Positions 7,485 to 39,906 of a stretch of DNA of 64,000 nucleotides are shown here, piece after piece. The DNA comes from Escherichia phage rV5_ev158. Location of the stretch: sequence record LR694611; one strand, 5' to 3'. A program made the position numbers and the translations under genes. Below the pieces are notes generated by a model. That model did no database searches. It had not been told where the DNA came from and was given only the letters and a program-made list of their open reading frames with translations. Each line of letters begins with the position of its first letter. The stretch's first letter is position 1.

Positions 7485-7958
7485 ATGGAGACAGATATGA
7501 GTAATGTTATGATTCCTAAAAAGACATTTATTTCAGTTACTTTGGATTTCCTATCTACCGTTCCCGGGTTTAACGTTCGCACACGAAACGGTCTCCGAGC
7601 TGCACTCTTTGCCGTAGGGTTTGATTTAAAAAGTATTGATGTTCTTCGTGGAAAAAACGTTCGATGCAAAAATAAGCCAACACATTATCGAAAGGCAGAT
7701 GTATTTGCTGGTGTCATGCGTGCAGACTTTAGATACCCGCAAATGTATAACGGTGTAGATATTTTAGATGTGGATAAAGCACCTGGTGAGGCAATGCTTG
7801 TTCAAGATCTTCCGTATGATATTCCTGTAGAGGATCGTGTTAATGTAAGAAAGTATACAAAACAATCTGAAAAGGCTGAAGATATTCATATTGTTGATGA
7901 ACCTTTCAATTTTGAAGATCTGCATCGCCTGGAAAAATTATTCGGTATTGAAAGCTAA
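7485..7958 (+). CDS. hypothetical protein
   Basis: Listed ORF begins at 7458, directly abutting the -10; in-frame ATG 7485 has GGTGAG upstream and is more plausible. Confidence 0.5.
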   Translation: METDMSNVMIPKKTFISVTLDFLSTVPGFNVRTRNGLRAALFAVGFDLKSIDVLRGKNVRCKNKPTHYRKADVFAGVMRADFRYPQMYNGVDILDVDKAPGEAMLVQDLPYDIPVEDRVNVRKYTKQSEKAEDIHIVDEPFNFEDLHRLEKLFGIES

Positions 7959-7968
7959 GGTGGTGAAG

Positions 7969-8199
7969 ATGAGTCATAACTCCAAGTGGAAGGATCTTGG
8001 TTTTGCAAGTCGGTCAGAGTATGTTGGTTGGCTTTGGTTCAACGGCCTGACAAACGATATTAAAATGTATGATGATGTTTATTATGACGAGTATACAGGC
8101 AAAATTATAAATATCTCTGTAGAAGAGGATACCTTTATCCAGCAAGATACTGATACCTGCCTTGATAAATACGTTGATGAAGTGGAGGAAGCAAATTGA
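7969..8199 (+). CDS. hypothetical protein
   Basis: ATG 7969 preceded by AAGGTGG; 76 aa. Confidence 0.45.
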   Translation: MSHNSKWKDLGFASRSEYVGWLWFNGLTNDIKMYDDVYYDEYTGKIINISVEEDTFIQQDTDTCLDKYVDEVEEAN

Positions 8200-10511
8200 T
8201 CACCAAGGTAATTAAAAGCAACGGATGTGAAGTGGCATTCGATCCAGAACGTTTAAATAAGGCAGCTATTTTCGGTGACGACGGTAACGGCAATTGGTCA
8301 CATATTGCACTGGATGCATACAAACGACTGTATGATGGATGTACAACCAAAGAAGTTAACCAAGCTATCATAGACTCCTGTGTTAGCCGTAAAGACGAAG
8401 CACATTCCCGTATGGCTGGTCGTGTTCTTATTGGTCAGATTTATAAAGAGGCTTTTGGAGGGTTTACAAAGATCCCTTCCTTACCATCATTTTACAACGA
8501 CATGGTTGAGAAAGGGTATTGGGAGGATATGGGATATAGCTTTACCGAGCTAAACACTTTAGACGCTGTTATTGACCACAGTAAAGATCTCGGTTATGGC
8601 TATGCAGTCCTTAAACAGTTTCGCGACAAATACGGGATCAAGGATACTCTTAAAGACACCTTGTTTGAATCTCCCCAGATGATGTTTATGGGGATAGCAA
8701 TGGCTGTCATGAAGAATATGCCGAAAGAACGTCGTATCAACGATGTTGTAAAATTATACACTTATCTGTCCGACTTAAAGATCAATGCCCCGACACCGTA
8801 CTTAAACGGGCTGCGCACAGGTAAGACAGGGTATGCATCTTGTTGTGTAATAAAAGCTGACGATACAGCAAAATCTATTGGTGTGGCACGTGAAGTTGCG
8901 TACACAATGACGGTTAACCAAGCAGGTATCGGCTACTATTTATCATCAAGATCTGCAGGTGATGGTGTTCGCGGTAACACTATTAAACACATGGGTAAGA
9001 TTCCATATTATCGAGGTATTGATGCTGGTGTTAAGGAGAACAGACAACAATCACGTGGCGGTTCTGCAACAGTATCATTCCTTGCACTGGACCCGCAGAT
9101 TGATGAGCTAATCCGTTTGAGAAACCCTATGACTGTTGCTTCAAAAAGAATCAACACCATGGACTACTCCATCGGTATTAATAGGTCGTTTATCAACCGT
9201 GTGGCTAAGAATTTAGATTGGATGCTTGTTTCTTATAAGCACGCTCCTCAACTGCATGAGGGTATCTTCACCATGTCTATGGAGGAGTTCGATGCAGAGG
9301 TTGAGCGTATTGCTAAAGATGACAGTATTCCTAAGACATGGATCCGGGCTAGAGATCTTGCTGTTGAGCTGATCACGCAGCGTACTGAGGTGGGAAGGCT
9401 GTACGTATACTGGACAGATGAGATGAATAGACATACACCTTTTAAAGATGTGATCTATTCAAGCAACCTGTGTGCAGAAATAGCCCTCCCGACAAAAGGC
9501 TATTCAGATATGCGTAATATCTTCAAGTACGATGTTGATGATGGTGAGGTTGCATTGTGCTTCCTGTCATCTCTTGTAGCTGGGAGGGTTACTCCAGAGG
9601 AGTATGAGGATGTTGCATACTATACGGTGCTTATGATTGACAATGTTATGGAAATCATGACATATCCGTATGAAAATATGGAAAGCACAGTTAAAAAACG
9701 CAGATCCATCGGGGTTGGCCTTACCAATGTTGCACATTTTATTGCCAGCCATAAGGTTACTTACGGGTCTCCTGAAAGTAAACAGCTTGTTCACGATCTT
9801 GCAGAACTTCACAGCTACAGCTTGCATAAGGCAAGTTTACGGTTGGCAAAAGAGCGTGGTGTCTGCGAGTGGATGCATAAAACAAAATATCCAGAAGGTT
9901 GGTTACCAATCGACACCTATAACAAAGAGGTCGATAGCGTGGTGAAAGATCCTTCTCTTAAACAGGATTGGGAAGGGTTACGTAAAGAAATCATTGAGAA
10001 TGGTGGGCTACGTAATAGCGTTCTTGAAGCATATATGCCTAATGAAAGCTCTTCGCTGGCAACAAACACCACTAACGGGGTTTATCCTGTCCGTGAGCAC
10101 ATTATCTTTAAAAAGTCGCCACAAGGGCAGGTGCTGTTTATCGTTCCTGACTATGATGGGTTGAAAGAGTATTACACCTCGGCTTGGGACGTTGATACTA
10201 ACGACATGATCGATATGTACGCCGTGATTCAAAAATTCACAGGTCAGGCAATCAGCGCGGATTTATACATAGACTACACCAAGTTGAAAGATGGTAAAAT
10301 TTCAATGAAGGAGCAGTTAGGGTACCTTATCCGTGCCACTAAATTCGGGATGAAGACATGGTATTATTTAAACTCTAGGGTTGGTGCTGGTGACTCCTTG
10401 GCAGAGGAACTTCATGCCAAGAAACAGGCTGAAGATGAAACCAGAAAGAACTATCCTTTGATTGCAGATAGTTCAGTTGAAGATCCGTATTGCGAAAGCT
10501 GTGCACTATAA
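8196..10511 (+). CDS. nrdA: ribonucleoside-diphosphate reductase large subunit (class I)
   Basis: 771 aa; N-terminal ATP-cone-like VIKSNGCEVAFDPERL; active-site NLCAEIALP; terminator follows. Confidence 0.9.
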   Translation: MITKVIKSNGCEVAFDPERLNKAAIFGDDGNGNWSHIALDAYKRLYDGCTTKEVNQAIIDSCVSRKDEAHSRMAGRVLIGQIYKEAFGGFTKIPSLPSFYNDMVEKGYWEDMGYSFTELNTLDAVIDHSKDLGYGYAVLKQFRDKYGIKDTLKDTLFESPQMMFMGIAMAVMKNMPKERRINDVVKLYTYLSDLKINAPTPYLNGLRTGKTGYASCCVIKADDTAKSIGVAREVAYTMTVNQAGIGYYLSSRSAGDGVRGNTIKHMGKIPYYRGIDAGVKENRQQSRGGSATVSFLALDPQIDELIRLRNPMTVASKRINTMDYSIGINRSFINRVAKNLDWMLVSYKHAPQLHEGIFTMSMEEFDAEVERIAKDDSIPKTWIRARDLAVELITQRTEVGRLYVYWTDEMNRHTPFKDVIYSSNLCAEIALPTKGYSDMRNIFKYDVDDGEVALCFLSSLVAGRVTPEEYEDVAYYTVLMIDNVMEIMTYPYENMESTVKKRRSIGVGLTNVAHFIASHKVTYGSPESKQLVHDLAELHSYSLHKASLRLAKERGVCEWMHKTKYPEGWLPIDTYNKEVDSVVKDPSLKQDWEGLRKEIIENGGLRNSVLEAYMPNESSSLATNTTNGVYPVREHIIFKKSPQGQVLFIVPDYDGLKEYYTSAWDVDTNDMIDMYAVIQKFTGQAISADLYIDYTKLKDGKISMKEQLGYLIRATKFGMKTWYYLNSRVGAGDSLAEELHAKKQAEDETRKNYPLIADSSVEDPYCESCAL

Positions 10512-29329: not shown

Positions 29330-29538
29330 TCAACACACATGCATCTGAAGAGACATCCGAAGGAGTGACCATATGTCCCTTGGATGAGCCAGTTAAAGAG
29401 GAAAACTTAGATTCTGAGGACTCTTCATCTTCGTCCCAGACAGATCCTGAGGCTGATGACCTGACGTGGGAGGACATCGTAGATATCTGGTTCTCTATTA
29501 TGCCTGAGCACGAAGAGTTCAGAGGTGGTAGACTATGA
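29326..29538 (+). CDS. small highly acidic, Ser-rich protein
   Basis: 70 aa; DSEDSSSSSQTDPEADD. Confidence 0.4.
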   Translation: MINTHASEETSEGVTICPLDEPVKEENLDSEDSSSSSQTDPEADDLTWEDIVDIWFSIMPEHEEFRGGRL

Positions 29539-29659
29539 AGCACCGAGCCCACACAGGTTCCTCATGCTAAAGCATGGCCTGAAGAGGCAAACGTGTATAA
29601 TTCTTGTGCATTGGAACGTATAAAACCCTGTTCACACTCTCATTCCCAGAGGAGATTTT

Positions 29660-29875
29660 ATGAAGATAGAGATATTTGGTGGAGCTGACAACACTCGTGG
29701 CCTGATTTACCTTGAATTCGATGAATCATACCTGCCAGAGGTGTTAAATATAGACTCTGTTGCTGAGGCTTTGGGAGTAAACCCTAAAGAACTCCACTCT
29801 TGTGCTGAGATCGATGGTTGGGAAGAGACCATGAACATTGATTTCAGTGAAGTAGAGGATGAACCGCTAGACTGA
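29660..29875 (+). CDS. small acidic protein (MKIE start)
   Basis: 71 aa; last plus-strand gene before the ORF-free zone. Confidence 0.45.
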   Translation: MKIEIFGGADNTRGLIYLEFDESYLPEVLNIDSVAEALGVNPKELHSCAEIDGWEETMNIDFSEVEDEPLD

Positions 29876-30004
29876 CACACAATCAGCTGCCCGGCTAAAG
29901 TGCTGGAAGCGCACCTATAACACATCTTTCAACTAAATTTCCTACCACCACAATCACTTACCTACCACACATGACTGTTTGCTTGTTTAGTGAGCAGTCA
30001 TGCC

Positions 30005-30033
30005 TTGACATTCTTGCCTATCCTGATAAAATT
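30005..30033 (+). promoter_or_regulatory. sigma70-like promoter TTGACA-16-TAAAAT reading into ORF-free DNA
   Basis: -35 at 30005-30010, -10 at 30027-30032; no ORF of 60 aa or more on either strand for about 2.2 kb downstream. Confidence 0.45.
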
Positions 30034-31382
30034 AAGTTCTTCTCTTTTCTTTTACCGAGTAATTCGGGTTTTCTGTTCTCTTCGGTTTGAAGGGGTATGG
30101 AGATACACCTGAGTGAACAGGGTGAACAACCGAACCATTGGCTATGGCATTAGCATGGCGAAGCGGACGGGTGACGAAAGAGGGGCCGGAGGACACCAGT
30201 CACTGCCATATGATATATGGGTGATAACCTGAAGAGTCTGAATAAGTGTTTAAGTACCAGTCAGAGGAAAAGGTGAATGGTAGCCGAAGGGGGATGGGGG
30301 GTTTCTTGTATCTTTAATTTGTATATTATGTATACACTTGTAAACCAATCTCATCTGAATCTGTTTACCACACAAAGCGGATAGAGACAAATATCACCTA
30401 TTAAACTTGAATTATTTATAGAAAATACCACAACACCACTTAAGTCTTTGATTTTACACACAAATCCTACAGATATTCAACCTCCATATTTAACATACTT
30501 GTAACATATTCCATACTCTACCTGTCTGATCAATTTCCCCAACTACATTCTCATATTTTCCCTGTCTGTACTACCCCTGCCCCGCCGGGAGTCCCGTCAT
30601 ATCTGGCTTTCCAGCAAATATCACACCCACAAATATCATTGCCTGAAGAGGGTTTCATCCCATAATACCTGCCTTACCTGAAGAGCGCTTCATACACCAC
30701 GTAAATTTTTTAATTGACCTCCCCCTGCCCCGCCGGAGAGGTTGGCTTTTCCCACACAGACCTGAAGAGTCAGCCAGAAATATCTGAACAGGCCCAATTC
30801 TACCACGATTTTGACCTGACCTACAGGGAGGCCCGAAGGGTCTAGCTTTCAGCTAGAGTCCTTGCAGGACCTACAGGAGCGCTGCCAGGCGGACGGAATG
30901 GGAATACTTCTCATTCTTATAACAATTCTCAAATATCGAGACAGTGAGAGAAATTAATAGGCCAGGCCGTTCACACAGTGGCACAACATTTGCAACCTAT
31001 TTTGGGTGGATGAATGAGAATACCTATCATTGTGAGAACTGTTATCATTACGGGCAATTTAACATAATACCCATTATGCGCACCACCGGCGATACATACA
31101 GGGATTGATAACATGGGTTACTGTTTACGCACATAACAATTATATTTCTTACTATTTGTGTGGGATATAGTTAGCAGCCGATAGATTAGATATTAACCTG
31201 CAGACTTCTGACCGTCCAGACGTCTAAACGCCCACACACCAAGGATTATACATACACTCCTGAATGTAAACAGGGCCGCAAAAATGCTACCATACAAGCT
31301 TGTAAATTTTTCATGCAGCACTTGACAAAGAGGAGAAAAACTTGTCTGACATAATGTGACCTAACTGACACAACATGACACT

Positions 31383-31471
31383 TTTACACACCTATTAGTT
31401 TACACACTGGATTGTTTACATTCCTGATTGTTCACATGCTAACCATTTACATGATTGACTGTTTACACACC
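31383..31471. repeat. iteron-like array, six copies of (T/A)GTT(T/C)ACA spaced 14-16 bp
   Basis: TTTTACACACC, AGTTTACACAC, TGTTTACATTC, TGTTCACATGC, CATTTACATGA, TGTTTACACACC; further TGTTTAC copies near 31121, 31265 (inverted), 31871, 31924, 31973. Confidence 0.6.
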
Positions 31472-31479
31472 GATAATCA

Positions 31480-31773
31480 GCCATGCCATTCGTTTGCATG
31501 AAAACAATTAACAAGATAACAATCGACAAGTTAATAATCTTTCGCTGGCTATGCCAGGTGACTAGGTCACCCCTTCGGGCGTTCCTATGACATAATATAA
31601 AAGCAGGGCAACTATTAGCAGATCTATAGTTGCCTTGCTTGTTATGTCATGATTAACTAAATACAAGGCAACTATGATCTGATTAATAGTTTGCAGACAA
31701 ACTATCACGGGGGTGATGGTTACTGCTTTTATATTATGTCGCGACTCCGTCGCGCCATGCCATTCGTTTGCAT
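31480..31773. repeat. 20 bp perfect direct repeats flanking a palindrome-rich 274 bp module
   Basis: GCCATGCCATTCGTTTGCAT at 31480-31499 and 31754-31773; between them a ~66 bp imperfect palindrome (31586-31652, centre AGATCT), GCAACTAT/ATAGTTGC inverted repeats and hairpin CGCGACTCCGTCGCG. Confidence 0.6.
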
Positions 31774-32380
31774 AGTTGCCTTATTGTTACGAATAAAACA
31801 ATTGCATTGTTAATGATTTCTTATCTTTCTCTTAGTCATCTAATGATTCCAGTCAGTATAGTAATGTACAGTAAACATTAGACGACTAAAGATTTCTCTG
31901 TTTATGATAACTCATCTTGATAATTTCGGACTGTTTACGAAAAATGTTGACACCTGAGCTGATTTATGTTATGCAGTTTACACGAATAATTATTTTATGC
32001 AGGTATTGACTATTCCGTTATTCTGTGGTTGGAATAAATACTTTGCAGGCTATAGAATGGCGTGCGTACGTGAATTCTGAGATCTGGCGGCTATAGTTAT
32101 ACTCGATTTTTCGCGTAGAACACGCTTTCGATGCTGTGTAAGTGTATGACTTATAAAGATTTTTAGTTGTTGACAAGATATTGGAGATGTGCATCAGGTT
32201 AAAATTTGTGCAATAGCGGCATTACGTGCACTTTTGGGAGAGAAAACGGGTAAAAATGGACTTGCTACCACACAATGAAAAATTATGCAATAGTTATTTT
32301 CCATGTATATTTGTACAGTATGTGGGATTGATGGCTAGTCAATTATTCCACTTGCCAGGTAGGGCCGTTTATGGTAGGAG

Positions 32381-32404
32381 AAGAGCAGACAAAAAGAAAG
32401 GGGC
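32381..32404 (-). terminator. Rho-independent terminator for the minus-strand block
   Basis: AGGGGCCTAAGCCCCT hairpin; on the minus strand it is followed by a T-run (plus-strand AAAAAGAAA upstream). Confidence 0.6.
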
Positions 32405-32433
32405 CTAAGCCCCTTGATAATTCAGTTAAAAAA

Positions 32434-32853
32434 TTATAATGATTCGTATATTTCAAAAATCCGATTTGCCAGGTCGTTACGGTAGCGGAATTTTTCCTCA
32501 CGTTTGATCATAAGATCTTTATAGCCGTACTCTTTAAGCACTTCATTAACTTTATGGCGGCATACTTTCATATTATCCTGCGCGTCACCAATAAATCTGT
32601 TGCTATGGTGCATGGCTTTAATTTCTTCTTCCAGGACCAGGGCAACTATGCGGACCGGATCAAGCTGATAGGCGGTAACATCCATGCGGCATTGTAAACG
32701 GCTTTTTACGTCTGCCACCGGATATACTGCAACCTCTTCCCCGTCAACATTGATAATAATTAGTTTACCATCGATTTCGAATCCTTTCGCCGCCGGACCG
32801 TGACAAAAAGCGTTATCAAAGCTATATGCCGGATTATTAGATTTAATGTTCAT
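32434..32853 (-). CDS. hypothetical protein
   Basis: 139 aa; last gene of the minus-strand block. Confidence 0.5.
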   Translation of the reverse strand: MNIKSNNPAYSFDNAFCHGPAAKGFEIDGKLIIINVDGEEVAVYPVADVKSRLQCRMDVTAYQLDPVRIVALVLEEEIKAMHHSNRFIGDAQDNMKVCRHKVNEVLKEYGYKDLMIKREEKFRYRNDLANRIFEIYESL

Positions 32854-39656: not shown

Positions 39657-39906
39657 CACTATTTTTTAAATTATTGTGGCGCAAAATGTTTAAAATCTCC
39701 TCAACGTCATCAACACGGCGGCAATTTTTAAACGCTACCAATTGCCCCATGATTTTAATCACTGGGCGGCCTTGCCAGTGCCCCTGGAGAAAGCGCGCCT
39801 TGACTTTATCGGTGGAACTATCACGCCACCAAATGGCCTTGTTGTTGCAGTAGTAAAAATTATTCAGGACAACATCAACTTTATCAAAATTTTTTAATTT
39901 ACGCAT
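39646..39906 (-). CDS. hypothetical protein
   Basis: 86 aa. Confidence 0.45.
   Translation of the reverse strand: MRKLKNFDKVDVVLNNFYYCNNKAIWWRDSSTDKVKARFLQGHWQGRPVIKIMGQLVAFKNCRRVDDVEEILNILRHNNLKNSVDK

Follow-up and report, generated by a model that had tools for sequence, protein, structure and literature searches.

What do the short words do that recur in the large gene-free interval of rV5-like phages? This interval has stood on genome maps as a non-coding box since 2013 without explanation (PMC3606486), and the terminal repeats of these phages have so far been reported only as lengths. We addressed the question in a 64,000-nucleotide stretch of Escherichia phage rV5_ev158 (LR694611; hereafter the window, with positions counted from its first letter), where a first-pass annotation made from the letters alone had pointed out a recurrent 9-mer, CCTGAAGAG, and a 15-mer, CCCCTGCCCCGCCGG, and had proposed that they are packaging, nicking, or regulatory sites. 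Window positions 29500-31500 are 100% identical to positions 103626-105625 of LR694610.1 (Escherichia phage rV5_ev168, genus Vequintavirus), and whole-genome counts refer to the window together with the remaining 74 kb of the record, 138,126 bp in all. The 9-mers were found to form a conserved one-strand array next to the left junction of the direct terminal repeat (DTR), and we give about an even chance to the reading that they are protein-recognition words for end recognition or maturation.

A composite word cluster beside the terminal repeat

Two gene arms converge on this locus, with the last plus-strand gene ending at 29875 and the first minus-strand gene at 32434-32853, and the approximately 2.5 kb between the arms hold no credible open reading frame (ORF); the term ORF-free zone, used in the first-pass annotation, is therefore correct. 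Small ORFs are annotated in the zone only in a few over-annotated records of relatives. A protein-coding account of the motif zone was rejected, given that there are no ORFs of note and that the indels among relatives are not multiples of three. The paper describing the rV5 genome drew the region as a grey box labeled "non-coding," found no terminators in the box, and attributed the change in skew to a switch in the direction of transcription (PMC3606486). Cumulative GC skew peaks in the zone also in the genome analyzed here, because the direction of transcription switches there.

On the plus strand, CCTGAAGAG occurs five times within 1.2 kb (Table 1). Four of the positions reported earlier were exact (29578, 30642, 30677, and 30761), and the fifth, 30219, should read 30228, a difference of 9 nucleotides (nt). 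Both strands of the window together contain seven copies compared with 0.48 expected from dinucleotide shuffles, 0 of 100 of which reached seven, and the remaining 74 kb of the genome add no further copy. A genome-wide count, suggested previously as a check, thus gives seven copies in 138 kb, five of these in 1.2 kb, whereas the 15-mer has only two copies in the entire genome, both in the window and both in the cluster (30574 and 30722). When strand-specific k-mer counts in the zone were compared with those elsewhere in the genome, CCTGAAGAG ranked first (Poisson p ~3e-10). The two copies found elsewhere lie in coding DNA in the sense orientation, which is meaningless because purine-rich coding strands bias the one-mismatch variants of the word alike (43 sense vs 8 antisense genome-wide). 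The earlier view that the motifs are not random sequence is supported by the strong enrichment, the strict orientation, and conservation across at least three genera, as described below.

Consecutive copies are irregularly spaced (650, 414, 35, and 84 bp), and copy 1 is located outside the ORF-free zone, in the spacer between two small plus-strand genes. A block of the form (G/C)G(G/C)TTCAT, said to follow three copies, follows only two, as GGTTTCAT after 30642 and CGCTTCAT after 30677; the copies at 29578, 30228, and 30761 are followed instead by GCAAACGT, TCTGAATA, and TCAGCCAG, respectively. In the copy 3 unit, TGAA and TTCA form a small imperfect palindrome. The two 15-mers, placed by the first-pass annotation about 40-70 bp upstream of CCTGAAGAG, precede it by 68 and 39 bp, as measured here. 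A third repeated word that escaped mention there, AAATATC, occurs at 30616, 30631, 30778, and 30931. The CCTGAAGAG words, the C-rich boxes represented by the 15-mer, and the AAATATC words make up a composite cluster.

The ORF-free zone holds the physical genome termini, because the DTRs of relatives and the ends of their records map there. The published 459-bp DTR of phage Gotham, annotated as repeat_region at both ends of its record with two identical copies, aligns to window positions 30888-31346 without gaps and with 98% identity. The records of EdH4, bov11CS3, and bov25_3 start at 30888; those of Gotham and ECP2309 end at 31346, and EcoIv14a_Aya starts there in the reverse orientation, so that at least six independent GenBank records begin or end exactly at 30888 or 31346. 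Terminal redundancies of 458 bp have been reported for EdH4 and HdK5 (Korf et al., PMC6563267), and a 514-bp DTR with T7-type packaging was identified by PhageTerm in KPP-1, a member of the genus Mydovirus (PMC9862379). By homology with Gotham, EdH4, HdK5, and the record ends, the window contains a short, exact DTR with fixed ends. Its left junction reads GCTGCCAG|GCGGACGG (the bar marks the junction), with AAATATC at +43 (30931), and the right junction is alike in rV5 and KPP-1 (CTTGACAAaGAGgAGA…TTGT). The three clustered 9-mers and both 15-mers are located 119-314 bp to the left of the left junction, the 9-mers at 127-246 bp, with the two other copies farther out. In virion DNA, the cluster is unique DNA just inside the right-end copy of the repeat.

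Table 1. Coordinates of the words and associated features in the window and in related genomes (identities refer to 14 close vequintavirus genomes)
Feature	Genome	Position	Strand	Remarks
CCTGAAGAG copy 1	window	29578..29586	+	1310 bp left of DTR junction; TATAAT 9 nt downstream
Sigma-70-like promoter, TTGACA-16-TAAAAT, upstream TG	window	30005..30032	+	scan score 11/12
Candidate structured non-coding RNA, ~260 nt	window	30038..30297	+	identity 0.99
CCTGAAGAG copy 2	window	30228..30236	+	inside candidate RNA 30038-30297, unpaired variable segment
C-rich box 1, CCCCTGCCCCGCCGG	window	30574..30588	+	identity 0.98
AAATATC(A) pair (at 30616, 30631)	window	30616..30637	+	invariant in 14 genomes
CCTGAAGAG copy 3 with GGTTTCAT	window	30642..30658	+	246 bp left of junction
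CCTGAAGAG copy 4 with CGCTTCAT	window	30677..30693	+	TGAAG/CTTCA palindrome; always 35 bp after copy 3
C-rich box 2	window	30722..30736	+	identity 0.71; often CCCTCCCCGCCGCCGG
CCTGAAGAG copy 5 (CAGACCTGAAGAGTCAGCC), then AAATATC at 30778	window	30761..30784	+	127 bp left of junction
Hypervariable indel cassette directly before DTR	window	30800..30875		identity 0.19-0.72
DTR region, physical genome ends	window	30888..31346		inferred by homology with close relatives
Second one-strand word array, TTTACACAC and TGTTTACA	window	31383..31470	+	4-5 copies, just right of DTR
First gene right of zone	window	32434-32853	-	139 amino acids, PHROG 12277, without Pfam domain
CCT(G/A)AAG(A/T)G, offsets from junction	PVP-SE1	-553, -525, -501, about -477, about -420, -173
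CCT(G/A)AAG(A/T)G, offsets from junction	4MG	-309, -182, -63
CCT(G/A)AAG(A/T)G, offsets from junction	GAP31	-386, -344, -63
CCT(G/A)AAG(A/T)G, offsets from junction	KB57	-280, -216, -137
CCT(G/A)AAG(A/T)G, offsets from junction	KPP-1	-317, -208
Terminator-loop copy/promoter copy	KPP-1	1990/2042
Terminator-loop copy/promoter copy	4MG	163/215
Terminator-loop copy/promoter copy	KB57	961/1013
Terminator-loop copy/promoter copy	GAP31	407/459

Conservation of the words and the junction

The zone was compared among 17 relatives that included 14 close vequintaviruses and three divergent IMG/VR contigs. These genomes contain 82 copies of CCTGAAGAG on the plus strand and one on the minus strand, at homologous places, and every one of the 17 keeps three to six exact copies. 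Among the 14 close genomes, column identity is 0.99-1.0 for the five copies, compared with 0.83 for the cluster overall and 0.94 for the repeat, and copy 1 is identical in all of them. In the alignment, the words are intact where large insertions separate copy 4 from the second C-rich box and where the sequence just before the junction has been replaced. In the 14 genomes, the last copy lies 77-145 bp from the DTR junction, a variation due to the hypervariable cassette between them; the junction sequence is conserved. In the divergent clade (e.g., contig L007), the flanks are only ~76% identical, yet five CCTGAAGAG copies and one CCTAAAGAG variant are present. In L007, a gene for a 256-amino-acid (aa) HNH_3 homing endonuclease (7716-8486, plus strand of the locus) is inserted in the otherwise non-coding zone, between the RNA-like segment described below and the motif cluster.

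The comparison across genera included KPP-1 and KB57 (Mydovirus) and 4MG, PVP-SE1, and GAP31 (Seunavirus), which share the same convergent arms and ORF-poor zone. In these genomes, the left junction has the homolog G(A/G)CGGAC, the site at which the DTR of KPP-1 starts according to its publication and at which the record of phage KP12 begins; alignment of the junctions from three genera of Vequintavirinae yields the conserved sequence CTGxxGTGYTAG|RCGGAC. Words of the form CCT(G/A)AAG(A/T)G occur in Mydovirus and Seunavirus on the same strand and only upstream of the junction. Every genus has AAATATC, without variation, at precisely 43 bp inside the junction (30931 - 30888 in the window), and one to three further copies precede the junction in Mydovirus and Seunavirus, with the same AAATATC pair as in the window found in KPP-1 and KB57. 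Counterparts of the C-rich boxes are present in KPP-1, KB57, and the divergent clade. Copy 5 is homologous to TTGACCTGAAG(A/T)GTCAGCCCTG in KPP-1 and GAP31, and copy 1 is the positional homolog of a terminator-promoter cassette with the same word in Mydovirus and Seunavirus. Between genera, the set of words is kept and their order and spacing differ, which is the pattern of a cluster of protein-binding sites rather than that of an RNA structure or a gene.

The 9-mer is specific to Vequintavirinae because CCTGAAG is fully absent from the Stephanstirmvirinae examined (BME3 and the Phapecoctavirus-like L009), which share the AAATATCA word and the AATGAGAATAATTATCATT element. An IMG/VR scan with the pattern AAATATCAC-N-AAATATCAT was abandoned as too unspecific (120 mostly unrelated matches).

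Candidate functions of the words

The closest precedents are found at the ends of T7 and SP6. In T7 (NC_001604), the 160-bp repeat holds CCTAAAG at 17, 41, and 60; eight more copies follow immediately to its right (175-332), and those at 39671 and 39700 directly adjoin the left side of the right repeat. The variants CCTAAGG and CATAAAG are found nearby, and the other strand has no copy. Like the rV5-type cluster, these T7 arrays, SRL and SRR, combine a short exact DTR with a word of 7-9 nt that is repeated in the flank, on one strand, at irregular spacings of tens of bp. The words are also similar (CAGACCTAAAGAC in T7 vs CAGACCTGAAGAG in rV5), and the variants CCTAAAGAG and CTAAAGTG occur in PVP-SE1, 4MG, and the divergent clade; this likeness could be due to chance, with rough odds of ~0.01 for two 7-mers agreeing at 6/7 positions. 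Unlike CCTGAAGAG, which is confined to the left flank, the T7 word is present on both flanks and in the repeat. Furthermore, there are three copies near the rV5-type junction vs eight to the right of the left repeat of T7, and the rV5-type phage, a myovirus of 138 kb, lacks an RNA polymerase gene. Given that CCTGAAGAG is absent from the repeat and the right flank, where a different word is found, the cluster is the same kind of element rather than a homolog of the T7 arrays. SP6, with a 174-bp DTR, carries a one-strand (C)CTTAGT(G) array that is highly enriched compared with the rest of the genome (CTTAGT 14 times in ~1.1 kb of terminal flanks vs 25 elsewhere, p ~2e-18); it differs from the rV5-type cluster in the word and in being denser and mostly to the right of the left repeat. 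Because T7, SP6, and the rV5-type phages all carry one, one-strand word arrays beside short DTRs are recurrent and lineage-specific, and the rV5-type cluster is a new example, in a myovirus subfamily. To our knowledge, such terminus-flanking words have not been described for Vequintavirinae; our search of the literature on the motif itself and on vequintavirus transcriptomes yielded nothing usable.

Repeated directional words beside a conserved cleavage site are also characteristic of lambda cosB (R1-R3, with cosQ), the P1 pac hexamers, and SPP1 pacL/pacR. At sites of this type, binding of the small terminase is proven and the geometry is largely fixed. The rV5-type words similarly adjoin a conserved junction and are combined with other elements, but the spacing between word and junction is not fixed, in contrast to AAATATC at +43, which is fixed in all genera, and the ends are DTRs rather than cohesive or headful ends.

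In T7-type packaging, the single repeat in the concatemer is cut at both borders, on opposite strands, and duplicated. If the words serve end recognition, a putative phage-encoded DNA-binding maturation component, small-terminase-like or accessory, would bind the cluster on replicated concatemers. Such binding could determine where or in which orientation the conserved junction (…TGCCAG|GCGGAC…) is cut, and/or support the repeat duplication on which T7-type packaging depends. At a variable distance from the junction, the word would serve as an address label and not as the place of cutting; AAATATC at +43 and the junction sequence are better candidates for the context of a catalytic site. Single-strand folding of the cluster is at chance level (z = +0.13), which favors reading of duplex DNA. 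The hexamer CTGAAG is the Eco57I/AcuI site; a fixed-distance (type IIS-like) cutter was ruled out by the variable distance to the junction. Among the roles proposed in the first-pass annotation, packaging gains from the cluster abutting the DTR of relatives, and nicking at the word, or at a set distance from it, loses, considering the variable distance of 77-145 bp and the conserved junction.

A broader proposal is that the CCT(G/A)AAG words of Vequintavirinae, CCTAAAG of T7, and CCTTAGT of SP6 are the same device, a strand-specific "end-proximal address" of short-DTR enterobacterial phages. This device would serve concatemer resolution or repeat duplication, with a shared host factor or analogous phage proteins perhaps acting as the readers. 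We consider this proposal decidedly unlikely. If true, it would make the tractable rV5-like phages an independent system for the role of T7 SRL/SRR, a question dating back to the sequencing of T7; in any case, the rV5-type arrays provide a second, unrelated system for the role of words that flank terminal repeats. Placing the junctions in the non-coding box gives a testable map of the genome-end machinery of widely used therapeutic and biocontrol coliphages, consisting of the conserved junction, the invariant AAATATC at +43, and lineage-specific one-strand word arrays. For the GenBank records encountered, most of which open at arbitrary points, the junction motif allows the true ends to be placed.

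Several observations weigh against a role of the words in end recognition or maturation. No small terminase subunit is recognizable beside the gene for the large subunit, the two small neighbors of which encode Rz-like spanins. For a packaging signal, two of the five copies lie far from the junction, at 660 bp in the candidate RNA and at 1310 bp in a gene spacer; several copies coincide with promoter-like or terminator-like sequences. No CCTGAAGAG is present in 30888-32430, that is, in the repeat and the right flank, the latter holding TTTACACAC, and the word is absent from the Stephanstirmvirinae although other elements of the terminus are shared. We know of no proof of function for the T7 SRL/SRR arrays. 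The termini of the window isolate were transferred from relatives at 98% identity and do not come from its own reads, and one PhageTerm run on a vequintavirus suggested headful packaging (PMC13211470), a discordant report that we treat as weaker evidence than the reports of 458/459-bp DTRs.

As a separate observation on the packaging genes, the large terminase gene (LR694610.1 58095-60525) is annotated as two joined pieces with an endonuclease VII-like ORF in the gap, which suggests an intron or intein-type insertion in the gene for the packaging ATPase.

Transcription control is a possible, if unlikely, function of the words. They could be operators or promoter-proximal elements for a phage or host factor, or parts of recurrent terminator-promoter cassettes, and would control rightward transcription where the plus-strand arm ends and on into the terminal region. 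The regulatory option of the first-pass annotation retains some force, given that several copies overlap sigma-70-like promoters and that one conserved copy is a terminator loop in the sister genera. Specifically, in KPP-1, KB57, 4MG, and GAP31, an intrinsic terminator, GGGAGCCTGAAGAGGCTCC-TTTTCTTTT, ~1.3-1.5 kb to the left of the junction has one copy as its loop; 52 bp farther along, the next copy overlaps the -35 element and spacer of TTGACCTGAAGWG-N10-TATACT; and another copy nearer the junction reads TTGACCTGAAGWGTCAGCCCTG-TATNCT. The absence of the word from the Stephanstirmvirinae, in which transcription of the left arm does not run toward the repeat, also fits such a role. The sister genera show TTGACC-17-TATACT at two to three copies; in the window, a -10 element is found only at copies 1 and 3, with a weak -35. 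The site of copy 1, with TATAAT downstream, is promoter-like for a 71-aa ORF; copy 3 is followed by CATAAT 10 nt downstream, and the promoter scan picked 30639-30666; copy 5, with degenerate hexamers, corresponds by homology to the second promoter-like unit. In the window, the hexamers in the TTGACC register, which end in the first two bases of the word, are poor -35 matches (ATGGCC, ATAACC, CTTACC, and CAGACC), TTGCCT at copy 3 is changed to TCACCT in several relatives, and a usable -10 exists at only two of the five copies. Furthermore, control of transcription leaves the clustering within 250 bp of the conserved DTR junction in three genera without an account. We rank this explanation second because the 9-mer is more conserved than the surrounding putative promoter hexamers and because the divergent clade loses the downstream -10 and keeps the word.

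The PeSL cassettes of T4-type phages offer a comparison for the terminator-promoter copies. In both cases, the interval between small early genes contains a terminator stem-loop and, ~50 bp farther on, a sigma-70 promoter, and the unit recurs with the same sequence in KPP-1, 4MG, KB57, and GAP31. Unlike the PeSL cassettes, there is one word-bearing cassette per genome, degenerate in the window (copy 1 only), and the cluster near the junction is not a stem-loop with a promoter. In the window, the words coincide with no IHF or DnaA site and with no convincing Fur site.

That the words are elements of a replication origin, namely iteron-like initiator sites with an adjacent spacer of 30% G+C and, in the sister clade, host DnaA boxes, is very unlikely. 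An AT-rich stretch (30301-30560, G+C 0.30) does adjoin the cluster, and a promoter and a transcript are predicted from sequence upstream of it. However, the words are 9 nt long, few, and irregularly spaced, whereas iterons are ~17-22 bp long, number at least three, and are regular, and there is no adjacent initiator gene. The zone is also the turning point of GC skew, but the change in skew coincides with the switch in the direction of transcription (PMC3606486). In the divergent clade, which is known only from metagenomes, two to three perfect DnaA boxes, TTATCCACA, are present in tandem inside the equivalent of the terminal repeat (L007 6840-6885, and also IMG_157310, IMG_140627, and L154); in the rV5-type clade there are none of these boxes, and the zone in the window contains no DnaA box with at most one mismatch.

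We attach similarly little likelihood to the copies being neutral remnants of local duplication of one ancestral unit, for example, a promoter/terminator module, with no function of their own. Copies 3 and 4 are indeed a 35-bp tandem duplication, the two units that extend from a C-rich box to a word look like a diverged 148-bp duplication, and indels and insertions are common in the zone. Within the units, however, the 9-mer is near-invariant while the intervening sequence has diverged or been exchanged. Genera with unalignable flanks still have the words and the strict strand bias, and a word has been gained or lost independently inside the candidate RNA.

Highly improbable is a motif at the RNA level, with CCUGAAGAG serving for processing or protein binding in transcripts, namely read-through RNA and the candidate RNA. 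In favor of it, every copy has the sense orientation relative to rightward transcription, and one copy is located in the candidate RNA and one in the terminator loop of other genera. Against it, purine-rich coding strands account for the sense bias outside the zone, the candidate RNA can do without the word (it occupies an unpaired segment absent from six relatives), and the cluster is without structure, with transcription of 30560-30800 still hypothetical. The sense-strand bias of all seven copies was discarded as evidence of an RNA role, the one-mismatch variants being equally biased (43:8). A structured or known RNA was likewise rejected for the motif cluster (no Rfam match, no tRNA, and no excess folding at the z value given above).

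A candidate RNA and other features of the terminal region

The promoter at 30005-30032 has an identity of 0.98 among the 14 close genomes, and the divergent clade has TTGCAA-17-TATAAT at the same place. The segment that follows, 30038-30297, is more conserved (0.99) than the neighboring ORF (0.96), and its conservation ends exactly at a G-tract. An alignment fold, from two clades only, predicts 56 pairs, 10 of these with compensatory changes; its elements include a 5'-3' closing helix and a 5' hairpin (CCGA/UCGG vs CAGAA/UUCUG). Folded as a single sequence, the segment has an unexceptional energy (z = -0.84). Searches against Rfam were negative, both at gathering score for the whole window and at E<=5 for 29500-32600. 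A metagenome scan with the RNA core detected only the two clades already known, so the covariation support stays at two lineages. The segment is a candidate for a new phage non-coding RNA, ~600-850 bp from the right-end repeat; a part in end maturation, an idea linked to the end-proximal address proposal, is likewise only a remote possibility. The part that carries copy 2 is missing from six sequences of the divergent clade; therefore, this copy of CCTGAAGAG does not belong to the RNA core.

The hypervariable cassette to the left of the DTR contains, in the window, a hairpin-rich insert of 50 nt with a 10-bp duplication, GACCTACAGG, on either side (30818 and 30868); the insert is common only to the window genome and phage Alma. 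A second hypervariable cassette is located to the right of the terminal repeat (31520-31586), and the GGCCCGAAGGG arm of the left cassette is complementary to CCCTTCGGGCG in the right one. The cassettes that flank the repeat resemble small inserts that are mobile or arose by slippage.

To the right of the DTR, at 37-120 bp, the second array comprises the TTTACACAC/CTGTTTAC family, other members of which occur at 30453, 31121, and 31931. TTTACACAC is found four times in the zone and zero times in the rest of the genome, and the array is poorly conserved among relatives (identity 0.67-0.80). The right half of the zone (31480-31790) is rich in exact repeats, including a 20-nt direct repeat, GCCATGCCATTCGTTTGCAT, at 31480 and 31754, an 18-nt perfect inverted repeat (31589-31606/31723-31740), and palindromic units, CAGGGCAACTAT/ATAGTTGCCTTG.

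Inside the terminal repeat, at 31013-31040, the AATGAGAATAnnTATCATT element is common to Vequintavirus, Mydovirus, Justusliebigvirus, and Phapecoctavirus; it was also found in L010 (3714-3767), in BME3 (L146/L147), and, as the reverse complement, in L009 (3760-3800). A neighboring copy in BME3, GATAATGATTATCATTTGC, is near the Fur-box consensus of Escherichia coli; the copies in the window are weak, with six mismatches. The BME3 record (PP239276.1) contains the terminal-repeat region three times, with N bases, which looks like an assembly artefact around the DTR, and for this reason BME3 was used only qualitatively as a DTR comparator.

The first gene to the right of the zone has homologs with 84-90% identity in Phapecoctavirus genomes of ~150 kb, often 1-6 kb from the start of the record, and thus seems to travel with the terminus region across subfamilies; in a few records, these homologs are labeled "DNA translocase," with no visible basis. 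The zone is also matched by 19 unannotated records named "Campylobacter phage" (MG0656xx; 89-97% identity for those listed), which are probably mislabeled or contaminant assemblies.

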